Shown: positions 495 through 63,282, numbered from the stretch's first letter. The stretch is DNA of 64,000 bases from Dehalococcoidia bacterium (GCA_965216065.1 CBDCFB010000001.1:1442218-1506217), one strand, 5' to 3'. Numbers and translations: made by a program. Notes: generated by a model not told the origin, from the sequence alone.

Positions 495-628
495 CTCGTT
501 TCTCCTGTTCTTCCTTGGCATGGATGTTGCGGGAACATGTTAAGTTCGCGGTTCATGACGCCGCAATCCCCCAATGGCCGTTGTTCCCGCCGAACGCGAT
601 TAGCCACCATCGAGGGAATTGAGCACAG

Positions 629-784
629 CAGGGTCTTTTAGTCTTCCGGTACGAATAACACAACTTCCGTCATTCCCGTGGAAGCGGGAATCCAGTGCTC
701 GGCTACCTGTGGCCGTGTTGTAGGCAATTGGCCCTCTGGATTCCCGCGTTCGCGGGAATGACGGGTGAAAACTAAAAGACCCTG
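629..784. mobile_element. MITE-like element type A (REP-hairpin core), 156 bp
   Basis: Perfect 14-bp terminal inverted repeats CAGGGTCTTTTAGT (629..642) and ACTAAAAGACCCTG (771..784). The core carries two inverted copies of the GTCATTCCCG-N-CGGGAATCCAG hairpin. Flanked by TTGAGCACAG and TTGAGCACAC. Confidence 0.75.
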
Positions 785-794
785 TTGAGCACAC

Positions 795-1010
795 AGGACG
801 ATTGCGTTTTAACCAAATCAGCTTTGCCGCTGTCCCGTCATTCCCGCGAAAGCGGGAATCCAGGGTTTTCGTATTGTTGGCTGTCTCCGGCTGGCTAACC
901 TGACGGTTCTCCGATGGGCGCAGAACACTGGAATTTCCGGCCATTGGATTCCCGCTTTCGCGGGAATGACGGTGTGAACGGCTGCGAATAACTAAAGCGC
1001 GATTGCCCTG
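795..1010. mobile_element. MITE-like element type B (CAGGnCnATCGCG termini), about 216 bp
   Basis: Ends are AGGACGATTGCG... and ...GCGCGATTGCCCTG. A reverse-complement relative sits at 13848..14107 and another at 34287..34481. Contains two GTCATTCCCGCGAAAGCGGGAATCC hairpins. Flanked by TTGAGCACAC and TTGAGGACAG. Confidence 0.7.
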
Positions 1011-1140
1011 TTGAGGACAGGCGCTGCGTTGACAATACAGGCGCGGATGGTGTATCAATCTACTGCTGACATGCATCTACCTTAGGCAAGCTAGGAGACC
1101 GCAATGTAGGCGGCTCTGCCCCAGCTGTAGGAGGAGGAAA

Positions 1141-2681: not shown

Positions 2682-3857
2682 TTGGACTTTAAGTTTACCC
2701 CCGAAGACGAGCAGTTCCGTCAGGACCTGAGGACTTTTCTCGACACCGAGCTTCCCGGGACCTGGGAAGGGGGCGGCCGCTACCCCGAGGAAGACGACTG
2801 GGACCTGACCCGGGTAATCCGCAAGAAGATGGCGGACCGGGGCTGGCTGACGATGCACTGGCCCGAAGAGTACGGCGGCCAGAACGCCTCTCCGGTGAAG
2901 TCGGCAATCTTCAACGAGGAAATCGCCTACCTCAGGGCGCCGGGCCGGGACATCTTCGGCGTGCGCATGCTGGGGCCGACGCTGATGATCCACGGCTCGG
3001 AGGAGCAGAAGCGCACCCACCTGACGCCGGTGGCGCGCGGCGAGGTGCAGTGGTGCCAAGGGTACAGCGAGCCGGAGTCCGGTTCCGACCTGGCCTCGCT
3101 GAGCACCCGAGCCGTCCGCGACGGGGACGACCTGGTGATCAACGGCGGCAAGATCTGGACGACCCTGGCACACAGGGCCGACTGGATCATGCTGCTCACC
3201 CGCACCGACCCGGACGCCCCCAAGCACCGTGGCATCAGTTTCGTGCTGGTGGACATGAAGTCGCCGGGCGTAACCGTACGGCCGATCATCAACATGGCGG
3301 GCGGACACGAGTTCAACCAGGTGCTGTTCGACAACGTCCGCGTGCCCCGGGCCAACGTGGTCGGCGAGGAGGACCGCGGCTGGTACGTGGCGGTTACCCT
3401 CCTGGACTTCGAGCGCTCAGGCATCGACTACTCGGCAAACGCCCGGCGATTGCTGGATGACGTCCGCGAGTACGCTACCGAAACGAAGCGCAACGGCCAG
3501 GCGATCAGGGATGTCCCGTGGGTGCGCAGCCTGATGGCCGACCGTTACATCGAATGCGAGGTGGCGCGGCTGATCGCGTACAACGTGGCCTACATGCAGG
3601 GAGAGGGCCTGGTGCCCACCCGCGAGGCCTCGATGAGCAAGGTGTTCGGCAGCGAGACGGTGCGGCGGGTGACCGAGGCGGCGATGGACGTACTCGGGCT
3701 GTACGGAACGCTGGGCCGCCAAGAAAAGTGGGCCCCATTGATGGGCCGCGTGCAGGAGCACTGGATGCTGAGCTTCTCGGGCACGATCGCGGCAGGCACA
3801 TCGGAAGTACAGCGAAACATCATCGCCGGCCGGGGCCTGGGATTGCCACGAGGTTAG
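2682..3857 (+). CDS. acyl-CoA dehydrogenase family protein
   Basis: 391 aa with a TTG start. Motifs YSEPESGSDLASL and GTSEVQRNIIA are typical of the ACAD fold. Confidence 0.85.
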   Translation: MDFKFTPEDEQFRQDLRTFLDTELPGTWEGGGRYPEEDDWDLTRVIRKKMADRGWLTMHWPEEYGGQNASPVKSAIFNEEIAYLRAPGRDIFGVRMLGPTLMIHGSEEQKRTHLTPVARGEVQWCQGYSEPESGSDLASLSTRAVRDGDDLVINGGKIWTTLAHRADWIMLLTRTDPDAPKHRGISFVLVDMKSPGVTVRPIINMAGGHEFNQVLFDNVRVPRANVVGEEDRGWYVAVTLLDFERSGIDYSANARRLLDDVREYATETKRNGQAIRDVPWVRSLMADRYIECEVARLIAYNVAYMQGEGLVPTREASMSKVFGSETVRRVTEAAMDVLGLYGTLGRQEKWAPLMGRVQEHWMLSFSGTIAAGTSEVQRNIIAGRGLGLPRG

Positions 3858-3897
3858 GACGCCAGGGTTCCTGCTCCTTCCGGAAACGAAGGATAAG

Positions 3898-3933
3898 CGC
3901 AGAAGGAAGGGAATTCCTTCTGCGTTTGTCTTT
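3898..3933. terminator. bidirectional hairpin terminator between convergent genes
   Basis: CGCAGAAGGAA (3898..3908) pairs with TTCCTTCTGCG (3914..3924), followed by TTTGTCTTT. Confidence 0.65.
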
Positions 3934-3938
3934 GGGCG

Positions 3939-4298
3939 CTAGGCGGCGAAGTACGCCGGTTCCCCAACGGCCGATATCTGCATGGTCGCCTCCCGGCAGC
4001 GCTGCATGATCCGGAATACGGTCCGCTTCGTGATTGAGAACCTCTCTGCAGTCTCCTCGATGGTGAGAAATTCTTGCTGCATCACCTGTAGCATCCGAAA
4101 GTCTTTGGCCAGCTTGCGGTTGCGCTGAAACCACACGGGGTCGTCGTACCTGCACCTTGGGAGCGGGCAGTCCAGGCAGGAATCGGAGACCACGCAGCCA
4201 TTGTCTTCATAATGGTAGAATTCCGAGGCGTCTTCCGAGGGAGTTCGCCCAGGATAGGAAGGAACCGATTCGGGGCGCGAAGCCAACAGCATTACCAT
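3939..4298 (-). CDS. putative DNA-binding protein with Cys4 cluster and C-terminal HTH
   Basis: 119 aa. Carries C-x5-C-x2-C-x4-C (CVVSDSCLDCPLPRC) followed by an HTH-like stretch LTIEETAERFSITKRTVFRIMQ. Confidence 0.55.
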   Translation of the reverse strand: MVMLLASRPESVPSYPGRTPSEDASEFYHYEDNGCVVSDSCLDCPLPRCRYDDPVWFQRNRKLAKDFRMLQVMQQEFLTIEETAERFSITKRTVFRIMQRCREATMQISAVGEPAYFAA

Positions 4299-4438
4299 AA
4301 CAATCTCCCAAACGCGTGTTCTATCATGTTGCGCCCAATGTAGAACATCCGTACATTGAATGTCAACGCTTTTCCCGCCCTATTTGGTAGAAATGTTCTA
4401 TTCTAGTGGGGCCATGGATTTCCGTAGCTGGAGGACCG

Positions 4439-5218
4439 ATGATCGAATACGAAACGATGACCTACGAGAGGAAGGGCAGGACCGCATACATCATGTTCAA
4501 CCGCCCGCAGTCTCTGAACGCCGTGAACCGGCAGTTCGAGGAGGACCTGCACGAGGCGCTGCTGGAATTCGACACGGACGACGAGGCGTGGGTCGGCATC
4601 ATCCACGGTGCCGGGCGTGCTTTCTGCGCGGGTGCGGACATCAAGCAGCGGTTCGTGGAGATAACTCCGCAGGAGAGCGCCCGGAGGGAGCGGGGTCCAA
4701 ATCCGGAGGGCTACCTGGGCCGCACGGTGAACTGGAAGCCGGTCATCGCCGCGGTGCACGGGTACGCGCTGGGCGCCGGTATCGTAATCGCCGCTGAATG
4801 CGACATGATCGTGGCCTCGGAGGACGCCCGGTTCGGCATAACGGAAACGAAGCGGGGGTTGGCTGGCGGCAGGATCTGGGCCAAGGTCAACGCCTTCATG
4901 CCTTCGAAGATCGCCAGCGAGATGGTCATCACGGGCGAACCGGTGGAGGCCGCGGAGCTCTACCGCCTGGGCCTGATCAACCGGCTGGTGCCGAACGGGT
5001 TCCATCTCACCGCGGCCGAAGCGCTGGCTGCGAAGGTGCTGAAGACGCCGCCGCTGTCGGCCCGGGTGGGCGTGAAGCTGACAAGGCGCCAGTGGGTGCA
5101 GACCGGCGCCGAGGTCGATATGCAGACCCTGCCACTGAAGCTGCACATGAGCGAGGACTTCAAGGAGGCCAGCCGCTCATTTGTGGAAAAGCGGCCGCCG
5201 GAGTACAAGGCCAGATAG
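4439..5218 (+). CDS. enoyl-CoA hydratase/isomerase (crotonase) family protein
   Basis: GGAGGA RBS before ATG 4439. Motifs FCAGADIK and AAVHGYALGAG. Confidence 0.85.
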   Translation: MIEYETMTYERKGRTAYIMFNRPQSLNAVNRQFEEDLHEALLEFDTDDEAWVGIIHGAGRAFCAGADIKQRFVEITPQESARRERGPNPEGYLGRTVNWKPVIAAVHGYALGAGIVIAAECDMIVASEDARFGITETKRGLAGGRIWAKVNAFMPSKIASEMVITGEPVEAAELYRLGLINRLVPNGFHLTAAEALAAKVLKTPPLSARVGVKLTRRQWVQTGAEVDMQTLPLKLHMSEDFKEASRSFVEKRPPEYKAR

Positions 5219-13847: not shown

Positions 13848-14107
13848 CAGGGCAATCGCGCTGTAGTTATTCGCAGCCGTTCACACCGTCATTACCGCTA
13901 AACATGTCCTCGACTCGATCGGGGAGCGGGAATCCAGTGGCTGGAAATTCCAGTGTTCTGCGCTCATCGGAGAACCGCCAGCCTAGCCCACCGGAGACAG
14001 CCAACAACGCGAAAACCTTGGATTCCCGCTTTCGCGGGAATGACGGTGGAGGGGCGGGAATGACGGGACAGCGCCATAGCTGGTTCGGTTAAAACACGAT
14101 TGCACTG
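13848..14107. mobile_element. MITE-like element type B, 260 bp, inside the arg operon
   Basis: Ends are CAGGGCAATCGCGCTG... and ...ACACGATTGCACTG. It is the reverse complement of the 795..1010 element. Flanks GTATAAACCA and GCGCAAACCA match at 7 of 10 positions. Confidence 0.7.
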
Positions 14108-25766: not shown

Positions 25767-25890
25767 TAGGGTTTTTTAGTTGTCGACTAACCCGTTGGTC
25801 CTGAGCCTGTCGAAGGGCCGTCCGCCCATGGTTCGACAAGCTCGCCACGAACGGACTCGCAAGGTTGCCATAGACAACTAAAAGACCCTG
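25767..25890. mobile_element. MITE-like element type A' (LSNH core), degenerate left end
   Basis: Ends are TAGGGTTTTTTAGT... and ...ACTAAAAGACCCTG. The core is homologous to 34153..34276 and 63118..63260. Flanks match at 7 of 10 positions. Confidence 0.65.
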
Positions 25891-27482: not shown

Positions 27483-28073
27483 GTGGCCTCCCTGTATGCC
27501 TGGACTGGCATTTGCCGGGCATTCTACACGGTTGACCCCGGTGACGGACGAGCCCTATGCTGGAGTGCGAAATTTCTGGATTGCGAAGTCGGGCGCCGCG
27601 GGGAAGCAGTGGACAATCTCGACCTGGACCTGCATGGCAAGACCTGGGCCGAGGCCCTTCGGGAGTTCGTTGACGCCTACAACAGGGCGGTCCAGCCGGG
27701 CGGCCATGCCTGCCGGACGCTGACGGTCATCCATGGCTACGGTTCCACGGGAAGCGGCGGGGTTCTACGAACGCGTTTTCGCAGGTTCCTGGAGAGGCAC
27801 GGCTCCCGCCTGGAATTCACGCCCGGAGAGAAGGTCAGCCTCAATCCCGGGTACACGCTGGTAACTCCGAAGTACCCCTTGCCCGGTGCGGATGCCGCGC
27901 TCTGCGAGCTGGTCTGGGACTACTGCGAGCAGCCGAAGACCCTCAGCAAGATCGTGGGGCAGTTCCGGCGGTTTGGAAACCCCCAGGTCCAGCAGGCCGT
28001 CCGGTCGCTTGAGGGGCAGAAGAGGCTCCGGAAGACGGTCAAGGCCAGGAACAGCCTCTACCAGGCGGTTTAG
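27483..28073 (+). CDS. Smr-domain protein (start uncertain; GTG 27609 possible)
   Basis: LDLHGKTWAEA...LTVIHGYGSTG is an Smr signature. The C-terminal part is winged-helix-like. Confidence 0.65.
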   Translation: MASLYAWTGICRAFYTVDPGDGRALCWSAKFLDCEVGRRGEAVDNLDLDLHGKTWAEALREFVDAYNRAVQPGGHACRTLTVIHGYGSTGSGGVLRTRFRRFLERHGSRLEFTPGEKVSLNPGYTLVTPKYPLPGADAALCELVWDYCEQPKTLSKIVGQFRRFGNPQVQQAVRSLEGQKRLRKTVKARNSLYQAV

Positions 28074-28100
28074 AGCCAGGCGGTTTAGAGTAGGAATGAG

Positions 28101-28140: not shown

Positions 28141-28164
28141 GCGGTGAAGTCCTTGGTATCAACG

Positions 28165-28430
28165 CAGGGTAATCGCGTCTGGAAGGCTGGAATCTCATTT
28201 TGCTGTCATTTGCTCCTTGCCAAGCTTGGCGCTCCTTCTCAAACATTAGTTCTATATGTATAACGGATGGCAAACAGAACCCGACTGACATCCCTGTGGG
28301 TCTCTTGAAACAGCGGCCAGCCCGGAATGTCCAGAAATGACCGGGAAAACGAAAAAATCAGCCCCTGCAAACCGGCAATGTCGGCTCATCCGACCCAACC
28401 TGCTGAGTTGCTGAATTCAAGACGCGATTG
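28165..28430. mobile_element. element with type-B termini but unrelated AT-richer core
   Basis: The left end CAGGGTAATCGCGTCT and right end AGACGCGATTG are inverted. TCCTTGGTATCAACG is directly repeated on both sides (28150..28164 and 28431..28445). Confidence 0.5.
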
Positions 28431-28533
28431 TCCTTGGTATCAACGGCCAACCCAATCGATGAAGCCCACCCCTGATATAATTTCGCCAGGATACGGACTT
28501 GGACTTCGGACCCGGACTCCTTGGAGGTCTTAC

Positions 28534-34049: not shown

Positions 34050-34152
34050 GACTAGTCCTCCTCTGTCGTTTCCCCTTACTATTTTGGCTTACTATTTTGG
34101 CCGAAGACCCTCGGATTTTACAGTGCGTCTCTCAGTGCGTCTCTCCCGGAGG

Positions 34153-34276
34153 CAGGGTCTTTTAGTTTTCTATGGGAACCTTGCGAATCCGTTCGTGGTG
34201 AGTTCGTCGAACCATGAACGGACGGCCCTTCGACGGGCTCAGGACCAACGGATTTGTCGACAACTAAAAGATCCTG
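34153..34276. mobile_element. MITE-like element type A' (LSNH core), 124 bp
   Basis: Ends are CAGGGTCTTTTAGT... and ...ACTAAAAGATCCTG. Flanked by perfect CTCCCGGAGG at 34143..34152 and 34277..34286. Confidence 0.8.
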
Positions 34277-34286
34277 CTCCCGGAGG

Positions 34287-34481
34287 CAGGGCAATCGCGT
34301 CTTAACATTCGGCACACTAATCGGGCAGGCATGGCTGCAAAAATTCCCGTTATCCCTGCGAATGCAGGAATCCAGAGGTCAGTTGCCAGTGAATCACGAC
34401 TTGCCTCGAGGCCCTTGGAATCCCGCTTTCGCGGGAATGACGGATTATGGGGCCCTCAGCATTTGGGACGCGATGGTCCTG
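34287..34481. mobile_element. MITE-like element type B, 195 bp
   Basis: Ends are CAGGGCAATCGCGTC... and ...GACGCGATGGTCCTG, with REP hairpins inside. Flanked by CTCCCGGAGG at 34277..34286 and 34482..34491. Confidence 0.8.
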
Positions 34482-34755
34482 CTCCCGGAGGCCCCGGCGC
34501 TGTCGGGAATTCCGGCTGTGTGTGGGCCCTGGATTTCTGCAGGGCTACCGGGCTTTTGCCGTCGTCCGTTCCGGCCAGTCGCAAGCTGAATCTACTTGAC
34601 ACTCCCAGAGGGTTGTGATAATTTTCACTCGATTTTTGGCCCGCCACCCGACTAGCGGGATTTCGGGCCGCTAATTTTGTCAGGAACCGGTCGACAGGCA
34701 GGCCGGGACAAATCGGCACCGCTCCGGTTTACTCAGGGCAGGATGACGGCAGTCC

Positions 34756-35887: not shown

Positions 35888-38215
35888 ATGAAATTATCTA
35901 GGCGACATTTTCTGGCTTGGGCCGGTCTCAGCGCGGTTGGCGCCGTGGCCTGTGAGGGCTTCGGCATCCGCGAAGGCGAACTCAATATCCAGAGTCCGGT
36001 GAGCCTTCCTGAGGACCTTGTGCGGGGCAAGGACAACTGGTACGCCAGCCTTTGCCGCAACTGCCCATCCTGCGAAGGGATCCTGGTTCGCGTGATGGAA
36101 GGCAGGGCGAAGAAGGTCCAGGGGAACCCTCTTTATCCCACCAACCAGGGAAAGAGCCACGCCCGATGCGAGGCCGGCGTTCAGGCGCTGTACCATCCCG
36201 ACCGCATTCCCGGCGCCATGAGGCGCGGCGGCAACCGCGGGTCGGGGCAGTTCGACCCCATCGGCTGGGATTCGGAGGGCATGGAGGCCTTGGTCCGCCA
36301 GATCAATGACCGCGGCTCCCGCGCGGTGCTTCTGACCAAGCCGACCCGGGGGCATCTGGGGCTTCTGACCTCCCGGTTCGCACAGGCCGTGGGCGCCGAG
36401 CACATGAGCTACGAGGCGGTGGACAACAATGTGTACCGCACCGCCGTCAAGAATGTTTACGATCAGGATGTTCTCCCCGACTTCGACATGGAGAACGCCA
36501 ACTTCATCCTCTCCTTCGGCGCCGACTTCCTGTCCACTTGGATTTCGCCGACCCGCTGGAATCGCGGTTACGGGGAATTTCGCCAGGGAGAGGGACGGAG
36601 CAATCGAGGTACCCTCTACCAGGTTGACTCCCGCTTCTCCATGACTGCGGCCAATGCCGACAAGTGGATTCCGATCCGGCCGGGATCCGAGGGGCTCCTG
36701 GCCCTGAGCATCGCACAGGTCATCATCGAAGAGAATCTGCAGGCCCGTGGCGTAGATGTAGATGCCCTCTTGGGCGGAGACACCGGCCGGACCTTGCTGA
36801 ACAATTACCGCCCCGAGGATGTGGTGAACCGGATAGGCCTCACGCCTGAAATCGGCGGAGGAGATCCTGCTGCCTTCATCCGGAAGATCGCCCGCGATTT
36901 CGCCGGACACGGACCCAGCATCGCCATCGCCGGCGGTTCGGCAGGGGCCCACAGCAACGGGCTCTTCAATGTGGAGGCCGCCACCGTACTGAACTGGCTC
37001 GTGGGCAGCGTGGGTGTTGAGGGGGGCGTACGCCTCAATCCCTCCGGCCCGTGGCAGGATGTCCCGTCATCGGCGAGCAGCGCCAGTCTGGACGACATGG
37101 AGCGGCTCACAAGCAAGATCCGGTCCGGCGAGACCCGGATGCTCATGGTGCACAATGTGGACCCGGTCCATGGTCTCCCGGGGTCTCTGGACCTTGCGGA
37201 TGCGATTGTCAGTGCCCAGGACCTGTATGTTGTAAGCTTCTCTCCGTTTATCGACGACACCACAGCGCTCGCCGATCTGCTTCTCCCCGACCGGGTGTAC
37301 CTGGAGGACTGGGGCGACGACATTCCAGACCCCGCTCCCGGGTACCAGGTGGCGGGATTCCAGCAGCCGGTGGTCAACCCGTTGTGGGATCTGGACCCGC
37401 GCAGCTTCCCGGATGTGCTGCTGGCCGCGGCTGACGGAGCCGGCGTGGGAGACCAGCTGCCCTGGGCCAGCTACCAGGCGATGCTGAAGGACAGTGCAAC
37501 CGCCCTGTTCGAGGGGAACCGGGGATCGATAGACGCAGGAACCGCCGACGAATTCTGGACCACCCTGCTGCGTCGCGGGGGGTGGTGGGACGAGTCGGTA
37601 ACCGGTCCCGATGTGCCGAGCCCTCGCCCGGGCCTGTTGCGTAGAATTTTGGAGAGTGCCTCGGCACCCACTTTTGCCGGTTACGGCGGGGAAGGCACCC
37701 TCTACCTGGCACCCTTCTCGCATAATACCTTGCAGGATGGGGATCTCGCCCACCTGCCGTGGCTCCAAGCCACTCCGGATCCGGTGACTTCCGTAACCTG
37801 GCAGACCTGGGTGGAACTGAACGACATCACTGCGGAGCGCCGCGGAATCCGCGAGGGGGATGTGGTGCGAATCGAGTCCGCGAGGGGCTCCATACGCGGA
37901 GTGGCCTACCTCAACCCGGCGACACCGCCCGAGGTCGTGGGCGTCCCATTCGGCGGAGGCCGCCGGCATGGGTCGCCGTACGCCACTGACCGGCCAGCCA
38001 GCGAGAGCTCCAACATTACCGACATCCTCGAACCGACGCGTGTGGCCGGCCCCGGCTCCCTTGCCTGGGCGGGTACCCGCGTTCGCATCTCTCCAACCGG
38101 CGAGAGCGTCAACGTCTCCAAGCTCGAGGGCAATGTCCGGTCGGTGGAGGTCGGGCTCAGCGCCGCCGAGGAAATCATCAAGACCGTCGCTCCCGGCAAT
38201 TACGGCAATTACTAG
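35888..38215 (+). CDS. actB1: ACIII ActB1 (molybdopterin-oxidoreductase-like domain, Tat signal)
   Basis: Tat motif SRRHFLAWAGLSAVGAVA. N-terminal Cys cluster CRNCPSCEG...C. 775 aa. Confidence 0.8.
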   Translation: MKLSRRHFLAWAGLSAVGAVACEGFGIREGELNIQSPVSLPEDLVRGKDNWYASLCRNCPSCEGILVRVMEGRAKKVQGNPLYPTNQGKSHARCEAGVQALYHPDRIPGAMRRGGNRGSGQFDPIGWDSEGMEALVRQINDRGSRAVLLTKPTRGHLGLLTSRFAQAVGAEHMSYEAVDNNVYRTAVKNVYDQDVLPDFDMENANFILSFGADFLSTWISPTRWNRGYGEFRQGEGRSNRGTLYQVDSRFSMTAANADKWIPIRPGSEGLLALSIAQVIIEENLQARGVDVDALLGGDTGRTLLNNYRPEDVVNRIGLTPEIGGGDPAAFIRKIARDFAGHGPSIAIAGGSAGAHSNGLFNVEAATVLNWLVGSVGVEGGVRLNPSGPWQDVPSSASSASLDDMERLTSKIRSGETRMLMVHNVDPVHGLPGSLDLADAIVSAQDLYVVSFSPFIDDTTALADLLLPDRVYLEDWGDDIPDPAPGYQVAGFQQPVVNPLWDLDPRSFPDVLLAAADGAGVGDQLPWASYQAMLKDSATALFEGNRGSIDAGTADEFWTTLLRRGGWWDESVTGPDVPSPRPGLLRRILESASAPTFAGYGGEGTLYLAPFSHNTLQDGDLAHLPWLQATPDPVTSVTWQTWVELNDITAERRGIREGDVVRIESARGSIRGVAYLNPATPPEVVGVPFGGGRRHGSPYATDRPASESSNITDILEPTRVAGPGSLAWAGTRVRISPTGESVNVSKLEGNVRSVEVGLSAAEEIIKTVAPGNYGNY

Positions 38216-38227
38216 GATCGATCTCCG

Positions 38228-38266
38228 AGTCAGGGACCCGGGTCAGGGACCAAAGTCAGAGACCCG
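38228..38266. repeat. 13-bp imperfect tandem repeat x3 in the actB1-actB2 spacer
   Basis: The three units are AGTCAGGGACCCG, GGTCAGGGACCAA and AGTCAGAGACCCG. Confidence 0.85.
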
Positions 38267-38287
38267 AGCCAGAGAACAGGCGCATAG

Positions 38288-39199
38288 ATGGTAACGAACC
38301 GAATCGATCACAAGTGGGGCATGGTTGTAGACCTGGACCGGTGTACCGGTTGCCAGGCCTGTGTCGTGGCCTGCCAGGCAGAGAACAACCTGCCCATCAA
38401 TACCAAGGACTATTTCCAGCAGCGGCGGGCCTACGAATGGATTCGCATCGAACGCTATTGGGAAGGCGAGTTCCCCAACGTCAAGGCTCGTTTCATCCCC
38501 ATCATGTGCCAGCACTGCGAGAATGCGCCGTGTGAGCCCGTGTGCCCGGTGTTTGCCACCTACCACAACGACGAGGGCCTGAACGTCCAGGTCTACAATC
38601 GTTGCGTCGGCACCCGCTACTGCGCCAACAACTGCCCCTACCAGGTGCGTTTCTTCAACTGGTGGGAGCCCAAGTGGCCGGAACGCCTGCGCAATCAGCT
38701 CAACCCCGATGTTACTGTGCGCAGCCGGGGCGTCATGGAGCGCTGCTCGTTCTGCGTGCAGCGGATACGCCGGGGAGAAATCACCGTCGAACGAAGGGGC
38801 GTTGAGCCGCTTACTGGCGAATCCATACCGTACGCCGAACCTGCCACTCCGAGCCAGGGCCGCTACCTGAACTACCAGCGCATGAAGGAAGGGAACTTCC
38901 TGCCCGCCTGCGCCCAGGCCTGTCCCACCAACGCCCTGATGTTTGGGGAACAGACCGACCAGACCGGCCCGGTCTACAAGTACTTTGAAAAGGCCAACGA
39001 GCAGTATGACAAGGTGCACCACGGCGAATACGTTGACGAGTCCAAGACCCGGGTGTACAGGCTTCTGGAAGAGATGGCCACGAAGCCGAACGTGATCTAC
39101 CTGAAGAAGGTCGAAGAGGGAGCCGGCGAGGCTCACCAGCCAATGGCTATGAATCCTGCCAATCCAAGTCCCAATCCAAGTCAGGCACGGGCGAAGTAA
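38288..39199 (+). CDS. actB2: ACIII ActB2 (4Fe-4S ferredoxin-type iron-sulfur subunit)
   Basis: CTGCQACVVAC, CQHCENAPCEPVCP, CVGTRYCANNCP, CAQACP cluster motifs. Confidence 0.85.
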   Translation: MVTNRIDHKWGMVVDLDRCTGCQACVVACQAENNLPINTKDYFQQRRAYEWIRIERYWEGEFPNVKARFIPIMCQHCENAPCEPVCPVFATYHNDEGLNVQVYNRCVGTRYCANNCPYQVRFFNWWEPKWPERLRNQLNPDVTVRSRGVMERCSFCVQRIRRGEITVERRGVEPLTGESIPYAEPATPSQGRYLNYQRMKEGNFLPACAQACPTNALMFGEQTDQTGPVYKYFEKANEQYDKVHHGEYVDESKTRVYRLLEEMATKPNVIYLKKVEEGAGEAHQPMAMNPANPSPNPSQARAK

Positions 39200-40693: not shown

Positions 40694-40788
40694 GTCATTC
40701 CCGCGGAAGCGGGAATCCAGAGCCTTTAACTAAGCTGAATCAGGCCAGACAAGCGGGAATCCGGCGCCTTTACTTAAGCTGAATCAGG
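40694..40788. repeat. REP hairpin plus ~43-bp-period duplication inside the ACIII operon
   Basis: GTCATTCCCGCGGAAGCGGGAATCCAG, then GCGGGAATCC(A/G)G(A/C)GCCTTTA(A)CT(T)AAGCTGAATCAGG twice. Confidence 0.75.
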
Positions 40789-48614: not shown

Positions 48615-48641
48615 GGTATTCCTGCGAAAGCAGGAATCCAG
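48615..48641. repeat. REP hairpin
   Basis: GGTATTCCTGCGAAAGCAGGAATCCAG. Confidence 0.7.
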
Positions 48642-54980: not shown

Positions 54981-55020
54981 ACCGGAGTCAACTCACTCTC
55001 CTTAGGAGGGTGTGGGGCTA

Positions 55021-55184
55021 AGAACTATCTCAAAACGACCATGGTGTCGTGCATTTGAACGGCTACCGCGTAGAACCTCTGGATTCCTGCTTTCGCAGGA
55101 ATGACGGTGAGGGACGCGGCGAGTCTTGAGATAGTCTCGTATTCCCTCTCCCGGAGGGAGAGGGTGAGGGTGAGGGTGAGGGCG
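55021..55184. repeat. composite repeat: AACTATCTCAAAAC-type end, REP hairpin (55081..55105), GEG hairpin (55142..55184)
   Basis: GGATTCCTGCTTTCGCAGGAATGACGG and TTCCCTCTCCCGGAGGGAGAGGGTGAGGGTGAGGGTGAGGGCG. Confidence 0.65.
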
Positions 55185-55274
55185 TACCCTCCTCCCGATC
55201 GGGAACCAAGGCTACTGTTACGGTCTTCGATTCTCCGGTATATGGCGGCTGTCACACACTCCCAGGGGAGGAGA

Positions 55275-59415: not shown

Positions 59416-59533
59416 GAAACTATCTCGAAACTTGCTTCGGTCCCTAAACCGTCATTCTCGCGAAAGCGGGAATCCAGTAACACTTGCTGGTAAGTGCTCA
59501 AGGCCATCAGAGGATAATCGTTTTGAGAAAGTT
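59416..59533. repeat. short palindromic element with REP hairpin core (approximate bounds)
   Basis: The ends GAAACTATCTCGAAAC and GTTTTGAGAAAGTTGC are imperfectly inverted. The core is GTCATTCTCGCGAAAGCGGGAATCCAG (59461..59486). Confidence 0.5.
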
Positions 59534-59534
59534 G

Positions 59535-60014
59535 CTAAGGCCCCCGCGTCAGGCTGTACACGGCCAGCCCGCCCTGGCACAGTAACATCAGAATTATCCC
59601 CACCTGCGGAAAGACCAGCCGGCCTGCGATGAGGTGTTCGCTGCTGGTCACGCTGCCTGAGAACAGCACGATCAGGAGCGGCAGCAGCGCGGCCACCGCG
59701 CTTGACTTGACCGGGTGCTGGTATCTCCAGATCTTTGCGAACACGTATATCGACAGGCCAGCAACAATCGCCGGCACGAAGAAAAGCGAGAAGGCGCCCG
59801 GCACGCTCTGCTTGGTCATCTCCCAGCGCTCGGTGCCCGTGGCCAGGAAGTAGGCAATCAGCTCGGCCCCGCTGAGGGATGACTCGGCGCCGTCCAGGTA
59901 CACCCAGGGCAACATCATGCTGGCTATCGCCACGATGGCAAGCAGGTTGCGCCACAGGTAGGTGTTGCGGAAGAAGGCACGCAGTGCGTCCGGGATCCTT
60001 TGGCTGGCTGCCAA
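59535..60014 (-). CDS. integral membrane protein (about 4 TM; unknown function)
   Basis: 159-aa ORF-track ORF, hydrophobic throughout. Confidence 0.55.
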   Translation of the reverse strand: MAASQRIPDALRAFFRNTYLWRNLLAIVAIASMMLPWVYLDGAESSLSGAELIAYFLATGTERWEMTKQSVPGAFSLFFVPAIVAGLSIYVFAKIWRYQHPVKSSAVAALLPLLIVLFSGSVTSSEHLIAGRLVFPQVGIILMLLCQGGLAVYSLTRGP

Positions 60015-63096: not shown

Positions 63097-63117
63097 CCCA
63101 GCGGGTGCCGCTCCGTC

Positions 63118-63260
63118 CAGGGTCTTTTAGTTGTCGAATAACCCGTGGTTGTCGAATAACCCGTTGGTCCTGAGCCTGTCGAAGGGCCGTCCCTTCATGG
63201 TTCGACAAGCTCACCACGAACGGACTTGCTAAAGTTGCCATGGAAGACTAAAAGGCCCTG
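63118..63260. mobile_element. MITE-like element type A' (LSNH core), 143 bp, with internal 19-bp duplication
   Basis: Ends are CAGGGTCTTTTAGT... and ...ACTAAAAGGCCCTG. Perfect 10-bp direct repeat CCGCTCCGTC at 63108..63117 and 63261..63270. Confidence 0.85.
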
Positions 63261-63282
63261 CCGCTCCGTCTAACTCCAGAGC

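Follow-up and report, generated by a model that had tools for sequence, protein, structure and literature searches.

Paired ISAs1-type MITEs at a triplicated 10-bp target in a Dehalococcoidia genome: probable re-use of one insertion site

Tandem and solo elements in the window

The window, by which we mean the whole 64-kb stretch of Dehalococcoidia DNA analysed here (64,000 nucleotides), contains two places at which two short elements, A and B, stand side by side among three copies of a 10-mer (Table 1). At locus 1 (619..1020), the 10-mers at 619, 785 and 1011 match at 9/10 positions. The first base of B1 overlaps the middle 10-mer; either a 9-nt spacer precedes CAGGACG, or the first C of B1 has been lost. 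At locus 2 (34143..34491), the three copies of CTCCCGGAGG (at 34143, 34277 and 34482) are each perfect. The order, A followed by B, is the same at both loci and the 10-mers differ. The sequence at both places confirms a preliminary description of this DNA, which had reported A1 and B1 with their 10-mers and a second arrangement of the same kind at 34143..34491.

Table 1 Coordinates of elements, target copies and other repeats in the window
Feature	Position	Strand	Remarks
T1-left target copy	619..628	.	TTGAGCACAG
A1, 156-bp ISAs1-type MITE	629..784	.	perfect 14/14 TIRs; start CAGGGTCTTTTAGT, end ACTAAAAGACCCTG
T1-middle target copy	785..794	.	TTGAGCACAC; final base may be B1's
B1, 216-bp ISAs1-type MITE	795..1010	.	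start (C)AGGACGATTGCG, end CGCGATTGCCCTG; TIR 10/13
T1-right target copy	1011..1020	.	TTGAGGACAG; adjoins a TTGACA box downstream, kept in relatives
T2-left target copy	34143..34152	.	CTCCCGGAGG
A2, 124-bp A-family MITE	34153..34276	.	TIRs 13/14; single long hairpin, z-score -5.6
T2-middle target copy	34277..34286	.	CTCCCGGAGG
B2, 195-bp MITE with B-type ends	34287..34481	.	CAGGGCAATCGCG / CAGGACCATCGCG; TIR 11/13
T2-right target copy	34482..34491	.	CTCCCGGAGG
A3, solo A-family MITE	63118..63260 (with direct repeats, 63108..63270)	.	perfect 10-bp direct repeat CCGCTCCGTC
A4, solo A-family MITE	25767..25890	.	degenerate left end, decayed direct repeat
B3, solo B-family MITE	13848..14107	. (inverted relative to B1)	direct repeat GTATAAACCA / GCGCAAACCA, 7/10
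B4, solo, B-type ends, unrelated interior	28165..28435 (with direct repeats, 28155..28445)	.	perfect 10-bp direct repeat GGTATCAACG
REP-like hairpin	672-691, 740-759, 840-859, 948-967, 14022-14041, 34419-34438, 40697-40716, 48618-48637, 55083-55102, 59454-59473
Tandem duplications, 9-15 bp	34075-34100, 34121-34144, 28061-28090, 2020, 23657, 23745, 31830, 38194, 39159, 54173

The A+B layout at the two loci is not due to chance. With up to two mismatches, the A terminus has eight matches in the window, all of them in facing pairs, compared with 0.13 in shuffled sequences, 0/100 of which reach eight. Neither target 10-mer (allowing one mismatch for that of locus 1, exact for that of locus 2) has any match in the window beyond its three junctions and one unrelated site. 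CAGG...CCTG units of 60-450 bp flanked by a 10-bp direct repeat with at most two mismatches numbered 47 in the window and an interim set of collected loci, compared with 2 in a reversed-sequence control. The CAGG...CCTG unit at 36146..38922, which has a perfect 10-bp repeat, lies inside an oxidoreductase coding sequence and was discarded as a chance match. A promoter and terminator scan gave nothing above shuffled sequences, the CCTG-T-CAGGGTCTTTT junction forming only a weak terminator-like hairpin, and an Rfam search of the whole window gave zero family matches.

Together with the solo copies, the window holds four elements with the A terminus and four with B-type ends. These copies are 124-271 bp long and ORF-less, with unrelated filler between the ends. 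A2, A3 and A4 align with a mean column identity of 86%, and B1 and B3 are clear homologues (about 88%); the interior of A1 differs from that of A2, and likewise that of B1 from that of B2. Because A2, A3 and A4 align and B1 and B3 are homologous, A and B are genuine multicopy families. Each A copy folds into one long hairpin (z-scores of -5 to -7). The window copies are MITEs, as had been proposed: they are short and multicopy, do not code for protein, have TIRs at their ends and are flanked by target-site duplications (TSDs). No autonomous copy or transposase turned up in the examined parts of the 64-kb window.

The interior of A1 consists of two REP-like hairpins in an inverted pair. This hairpin, (CC)GTCATTCCCGCGAAAGCGGGAATCCAG (ATTCCCGCGAAAGCGGGAAT), occurs 11 times in the window compared with 0.01 expected; it forms inverted, REPIN-like pairs within A1, B1, B2 and B3, and its solo copies stand directly 3' of stop codons. 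The MITE interiors seem to be built from a local REP-like module. As a class, REP and REPIN elements are short palindromes, frequently paired in inverted orientation, that abound behind genes and are moved by a RAYT transposase. A third MITE-like family (about 55020-55140 and about 59420-59535), with ends AACTATCTC(A/G)AAAC and GTTTTGAGA(T/A)AGTT, also encloses the hairpin, and the copy at 55140-55185 is followed by a CCCTCTCCC...GGGAGAGGGTGAGGGTGAGGG module resembling modules inside Dehalococcoidia MITEs. At B4 (flanks 28149-28164 and 28430-28445), inclusion of the degenerate right end GTCCTT lengthens the direct repeat to 16 bp (GTCCTTGGTATCAACG); the same six bases stand before the left target copy.

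ISAs1-type termini of A and B

The inverted repeats of ISAs1 elements are 14-22 bp long and start with CAGGG, and the family makes a 10-bp direct repeat (PMC11946415), as does its member ISArsp11, which has the inverted repeat CAGGGCTGATGCAAAGTCG (PMC6305408). A1, A2, B1 and B2 all start with CAGG(G). A metagenome scan with the 18-nt A end returned 67 loci, 13 of which carry elements of 1182-1259 bp with CAGGGTCTTTTAGT at both ends and the 18-mer CAGGGTCTTTTAGTTTTC at one or both; in six full-length elements checked base by base, CAGGGTCTTTTAGTTTTC is complete at both ends. Once one frameshift is bridged, the full-length A-end ORF reaches 220 bits against NCBIfam NF033564 ("ISAs1 family transposase", transpos_ISAs1; cut-off 70) and also contains the Pfam domains DDE_Tnp_1_assoc and DDE_Tnp_1. 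In a tblastn search against plasmids, only genes annotated as ISAs1 family matched. A full-length insertion sequence with the same ends and a transposase, which the preliminary description had proposed to look for, was thus found: its termini are identical to those of A, including both ends of A1, and its transposase belongs to the ISAs1 family.

Two full-length copies on a 272-kb contig are flanked by 10-bp repeats, one of them perfect and the other matching at 8/10 positions. A clean direct repeat is missing from all 13 full-length copies found on metagenome contigs of 1.4-9 kb, which we assume to result from chimeric assembly of repeats. Dehalococcoidia and Planctomycetota MAGs also contain MITE-sized copies with A ends and 10-bp repeats of their own. 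These copies have unrelated interiors, and only the outer 14-19 bp are kept across the phyla (Chloroflexota and Planctomycetota). A blastn comparison of the window with the collected loci gave zero matches, so the interiors are not common to different genomes. These Dehalococcoidia and Planctomycetota copies are the informative part of a genome-collection scan with the bare 14-mer, which otherwise yielded mostly chance matches in unrelated taxa. Several candidates were rejected. Of the apparent 1569-bp and 1488-bp "elements" in L054, L073 and L038, the L054/L073 pair are chance matches within an ordinary host gene and have no transposase, and the L038 interval has no transposase-like ORF. A scan of viral contigs was irrelevant, as all that it gave were phage contigs of low GC content in which element ends are not paired.

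The transposase ORF of the A-end ISAs1 lineage is split in every copy examined, and this split at a conserved slippery run distinguishes the lineage within the ISAs1 family. The split site is a conserved A6-8G3-5 run or GACCCCCTTTTA (L143, about 1030-1045; L199, about 627-640; L135). In L156, L165, L166 and L197 the ORF is split about 800 nt into the element, and a split is also seen in L229 (1183-2344). More than 100 related protein clusters end at about 58% of full length, and the annotation of the Azospirillum ISAs1 copy gives two overlapping CDS. The lineage looks as if it uses programmed frameshifting, which to our knowledge is not a listed ISAs1 trait.

Some flanks and contig ends are irregular. 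The 10-mer copies flanking the full-length element in L143 (404-413 and 1621-1630) are inverted rather than direct and match at 8/10 positions, and in L165 and L187 the 10-mer or 9-mer of the right flank is found again upstream of the element's left end, at a distance of 18 or 29 nt; such flanks could be inter-copy rearrangements or assembly artefacts. Contigs of Planctomycetota MAGs (L008, L021, L041, L080 (Phycisphaerales MAG DAHVEJ01); L079, L121) stop 20-97 nt inside an A-terminus element, which indicates that the insertion sequence is multicopy there and breaks assemblies. In L225 and L228, the whole contig is exactly one insertion sequence of 1207-1208 bp.

The B terminus is an ISAs1 end too. 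What is left of an ISAs1 transposase in L198, a truncated C-terminus that matches NF033564 at positions 274-312 (E 5e-11, below the whole-protein cut-off of the model), runs into ...ATGCGATTGCCCTG, a B-type terminus. The ISAs1 copy of Azospirillum B510 (1268 bp) has the inverted repeat CAGGGCGATTCAGAGAA, which resembles the B end, and a perfect 10-bp direct repeat, ACCTCAAGCA. In the same L198 (1-300), an A-type end is inserted in the transposase gene of the element with the B-type terminus, which implies that the A and B lineages coexist and strike each other.

From the common CAGG start of the two types, a single transposase mobilising several non-autonomous families had been suggested. This suggestion is not supported, as CAGGG is the family-wide ISAs1 end (PMC11946415). 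Past these five bases the two types of terminus show no relationship, and the A-type transposase and the B-end remnant are only 38% identical over 39 aligned residues at the conserved C-terminal motif, which is all that remains of the B-type gene. Judged from these sequences, the better reading is that A and B come from two distinct ISAs1 lineages.

Members of the family (ISAs1, ISArsp11, Frankia Francci3_2330/2941 and the ISAzs22-like element of Azospirillum B510) share with A and B the CAGGG inverted repeats and the 10-bp direct repeat. The full-length relatives, of about 1.2-1.3 kb and with an NF033564 transposase, have ends identical to those of A and similar to those of B, whereas the window copies are far shorter, lack an ORF and carry unrelated filler. 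Bacterial MITEs include the Correia and Nezha elements. A and B resemble such MITEs, for example the Microcystis MaeMITEs (PMC2779907), in being short and multicopy, in their TIRs and long hairpins, in a TSD of the length made by the parent insertion sequence and in an intergenic position near promoters, but differ from them in that the interiors here seem to have been swapped for local REP-like modules. The abundant and previously unlabelled repeats with CAGGGTCTTTTAGTTTTC ends in uncultured genomes of Chloroflexota and Planctomycetota type are now assigned to ISAs1, an assignment that aids annotation and explains assembly breaks.

Target duplications and orthologous sites

Perfect 10-bp direct repeats are present in the window at 34143/34277/34482, 63108/63261 and 28155/28436. 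A scan of direct-repeat lengths gave eight pairs at 10 bp, seven at 8 bp, two at 9 bp and none at 11 or 12 bp, and so separates 10 bp from 9, 11 and 12 bp but not from 8 bp; lengths of 8-10 bp fall within the range for ISAs1. Among 14 reconstructed target sites, the repeat is different at each and no sequence consensus is seen; solo MITEs with 10-bp direct repeats of their own are also found in other genomes. Because the repeats differ from locus to locus, the 10-mers are target duplications and not parts of the elements. Two earlier proposals stand on this evidence. The first, that the 10-mers are locus-specific TSDs, agrees with the solo copies A3 and B4, whose 10-bp repeats, CCGCTCCGTC and GGTATCAACG, are different ones. 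The second, that the transposition mechanism duplicates 10 bp, is supported, the responsible system being the ISAs1 family, with repeats in the window, in other genomes, on the 272-kb contig and around the Azospirillum copy. The two targets that host tandem pairs are the most self-complementary of the 14 (6/10), which is no more than a hint.

At locus 1, relatives L219-L222, whose relatedness is measured by 83% identity of the adjacent 88-residue protein, have the same gene order and an intergenic region of 256 bp, compared with 646 bp here. Subtraction of A+T+B+T (392 bp, T being the target 10-mer) from 646 bp leaves 254 bp. The relatives have one T-like copy and keep the right flank including the TTGACA box, and their left flank is too diverged for alignment. 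They show an orthologous site of the empty size, which points to locus 1 having formerly been empty. No clean empty site is seen at locus 2, where the closest relatives (93% and 88%) have other repeats. About 16 near-identical metagenome strain contigs, 10 covering locus 1 and six covering locus 2, all carry A+B and show no presence/absence polymorphism. A site of empty size thus exists at locus 1 in L219-L222, in the kind of comparison that the preliminary description had proposed. For one gene, the closest named homologues belong to Chloroflexota and Entotheonellaceae MAGs. L221 differs from the three strains that co-occur with it in one sample (L219, L220 and L222) by a 1.2-kb insertion (3719-4943) between gidB and an AsnC-family gene, which starts with GTAACTG and is not ISAs1.

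Origin of the tandem arrangement

We consider it likely that A and B are MITEs of two ISAs1 lineages and that the second insertion re-used the 10-bp target of the first in exact register, with narrow targeting as the likeliest cause. What we infer beyond the structure itself is mobilisation in trans, an order of insertion, a cause of target re-use and a survival bias for unlike pairs. A and B would keep only the binding sites of an ISAs1 DDE transposase, TIRs of ~13-19 bp, around a short hairpin-forming filler, and a full-length copy would supply the transposase in trans. The transposase would join the element ends to a target cut with a 10-bp stagger, and repair of the gaps would duplicate the 10 bp. 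Insertion of a first element X would thus give T-X-T; a second element, entering through staggered cuts in the identical register within one T copy, would give T-A-T-B-T. The exact re-use would most likely follow from a very narrow target choice, set by local features that survive beside one T copy, to which the resident end possibly contributes.

Insertion of the second element precisely into the duplicated target, as first suggested from the window alone, is implied by the structure of both loci and recurs in an unrelated genome. The locus there, L037 of a Dehalococcoidia MAG, holds a B-type MITE of 67 bp and an A-type MITE of 151 bp, set among three degenerate AGCATTGGAT copies. Stepwise landing itself is our inference, and no T-A-T or T-B-T intermediate was found among the strains and relatives compared. 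Further cases with a triple target, less clear, are possible in L064 and L085; the latter is a complex duplicated region and was not counted as a firm array. Every firm tandem pair is an unlike one, A with B. By analogy, this bias may be one of survivorship, as like ends 10 bp apart would resemble the reactive abutted-end junctions of IS30, IS21 and IS911; unlike pairs would persist because their abutting ends are no substrate for one transposase.

As to the cause of re-use, a narrow hotspot is favoured over attraction to resident ends, and the two are not mutually exclusive. In Frankia, where ISAs1 transposition has been seen experimentally, the pyrF locus was struck by 3/4 new insertions (PMC11946415), which fits a narrow hotspot and suggests that a naive target can be re-used with no resident element beside it. 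A hotspot defined by sequence is not evident among the 14 targets. The lack of a consensus in tandem and solo targets alike suits a different explanation, which we rate as possible but doubtful: the transposase, or the transpososome of the second element, is drawn to a resident ISAs1-type end, so that the boundary between end and flank becomes one of the staggered cuts and the newcomer lies one target length away, whatever the sequence. Insertion beside inverted-repeat ends is established for IS30 and IS911. Two of the four A copies in one 64-kb window are in tandem, and the arrangement recurs in the unrelated genome of L037 and possibly in L085 and L064. Against such homing, most copies are solo, and CCTG stands 9-11 nt outside A-type ends six times over all loci compared with about three expected, which alone is not significant; the Frankia insertions also speak against it. 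The fuller version, in which ISAs1 transposases actively home to the flanks of resident ends, arrays re-use the 10-bp copy of a neighbour and only neighbours with unlike ends survive, we hold to be similarly tentative. If true, it would give ISAs1 a mode of target selection undescribed for the family, and MITE clusters a means of growing at promoters.

The same end product could come from separate T-A-T and T-B-T alleles, formed in different cells or lineages and joined by unequal recombination over the 10-bp repeat or the flanks, and ISAs1 is able to strike one site repeatedly. We regard this as improbable: exact re-use of the target would still be needed and nothing extra would be explained, a homology of 10 bp is very short, and single-element alleles were not seen among the sampled strains. 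Still less probable is that A-T-B is a composite unit moving by its outer ends, with 10-mers that are not all local duplications. The window does hold two such pairs, both with A first, but a composite would be expected to bring the spacer of its donor, and the inner 10-mer instead matches the local flanks and varies by locus. This agreement of the middle 10-mer with its own flanks, differing between the loci, excludes both a composite that carries a spacer and a fixed att core. The unlike interiors of A1 and A2 and of B1 and B2, and the existence of solo A and solo B copies each with its own direct repeat, likewise oppose a composite. Tandem accretion by a site-specific recombinase, with the 10-mer as an att-like crossover core as in integrative elements and integron cassettes, would produce the classic repeat-element-repeat-element-repeat pattern of tandem integration at one att site, but is hardly credible here given that the repeat is different at all 14 tabulated sites, the termini are inverted repeats of ISAs1 type, neither an integrase nor any other transposase was seen among the ORFs next to the two loci, and the whole window lacks an Rfam match.

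Re-use of the first target by a second ISAs1-type element, the reading we prefer, has partial parallels. In Tn7-like arrays at attTn7, which follow the logic of a narrow hotspot, and in att-site accretion, repeats and elements also alternate and the second arrival uses the position of the first; a dedicated protein for target selection, or an att core, fixes that position, which does not vary between genomes. In contrast, the 10-mer of the A+B arrays changes from locus to locus, and their enzyme is an ordinary DDE transposase that is not known to have a targeting partner. IS30, IS21 and IS911 also bring ends to within a few bases of each other and prefer to insert beside a resident inverted repeat. 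Their junctions join two ends of the same insertion sequence and are highly reactive and unstable, whereas the abutting ends of A+B come from two ISAs1 lineages, are kept apart by an entire 10-bp target copy and are stable across strains.

We know of no description of exact tandem pairs with a triplicated target for ISAs1, and a literature search on ISAs1-derived MITEs or tandem MITEs with a common duplication found nothing relevant. A and B belong to a known family; their triple-target tandem, a tidy detail that has apparently not been described before, does not make them a new kind of system, and the arrays are otherwise ordinary transposon biology. The triplicated target is a natural record of two different ISAs1-type elements in the same 10-bp register, and, with ISAs1 target selection little known, such arrays offer a testable handle on it.

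Two minor observations concern short repeats without an element. In L116 (2209-2227), GTTCCGGT GTTCCGGTGT adjoins the left side of an A-type MITE that has (G)TTCCCGTGT as its right repeat; the extra, element-less target copy could be what a tandem neighbour left behind on excision. The window also contains ten perfect tandem duplications of 9-15 bp, compared with 0-1 in shuffled sequences (Table 1). A 12-bp one adjoins a target copy of locus 2, and a 13-bp one is missing from three otherwise near-identical strains (L003-L005); these duplications could be products of slippage or footprints of excised elements.
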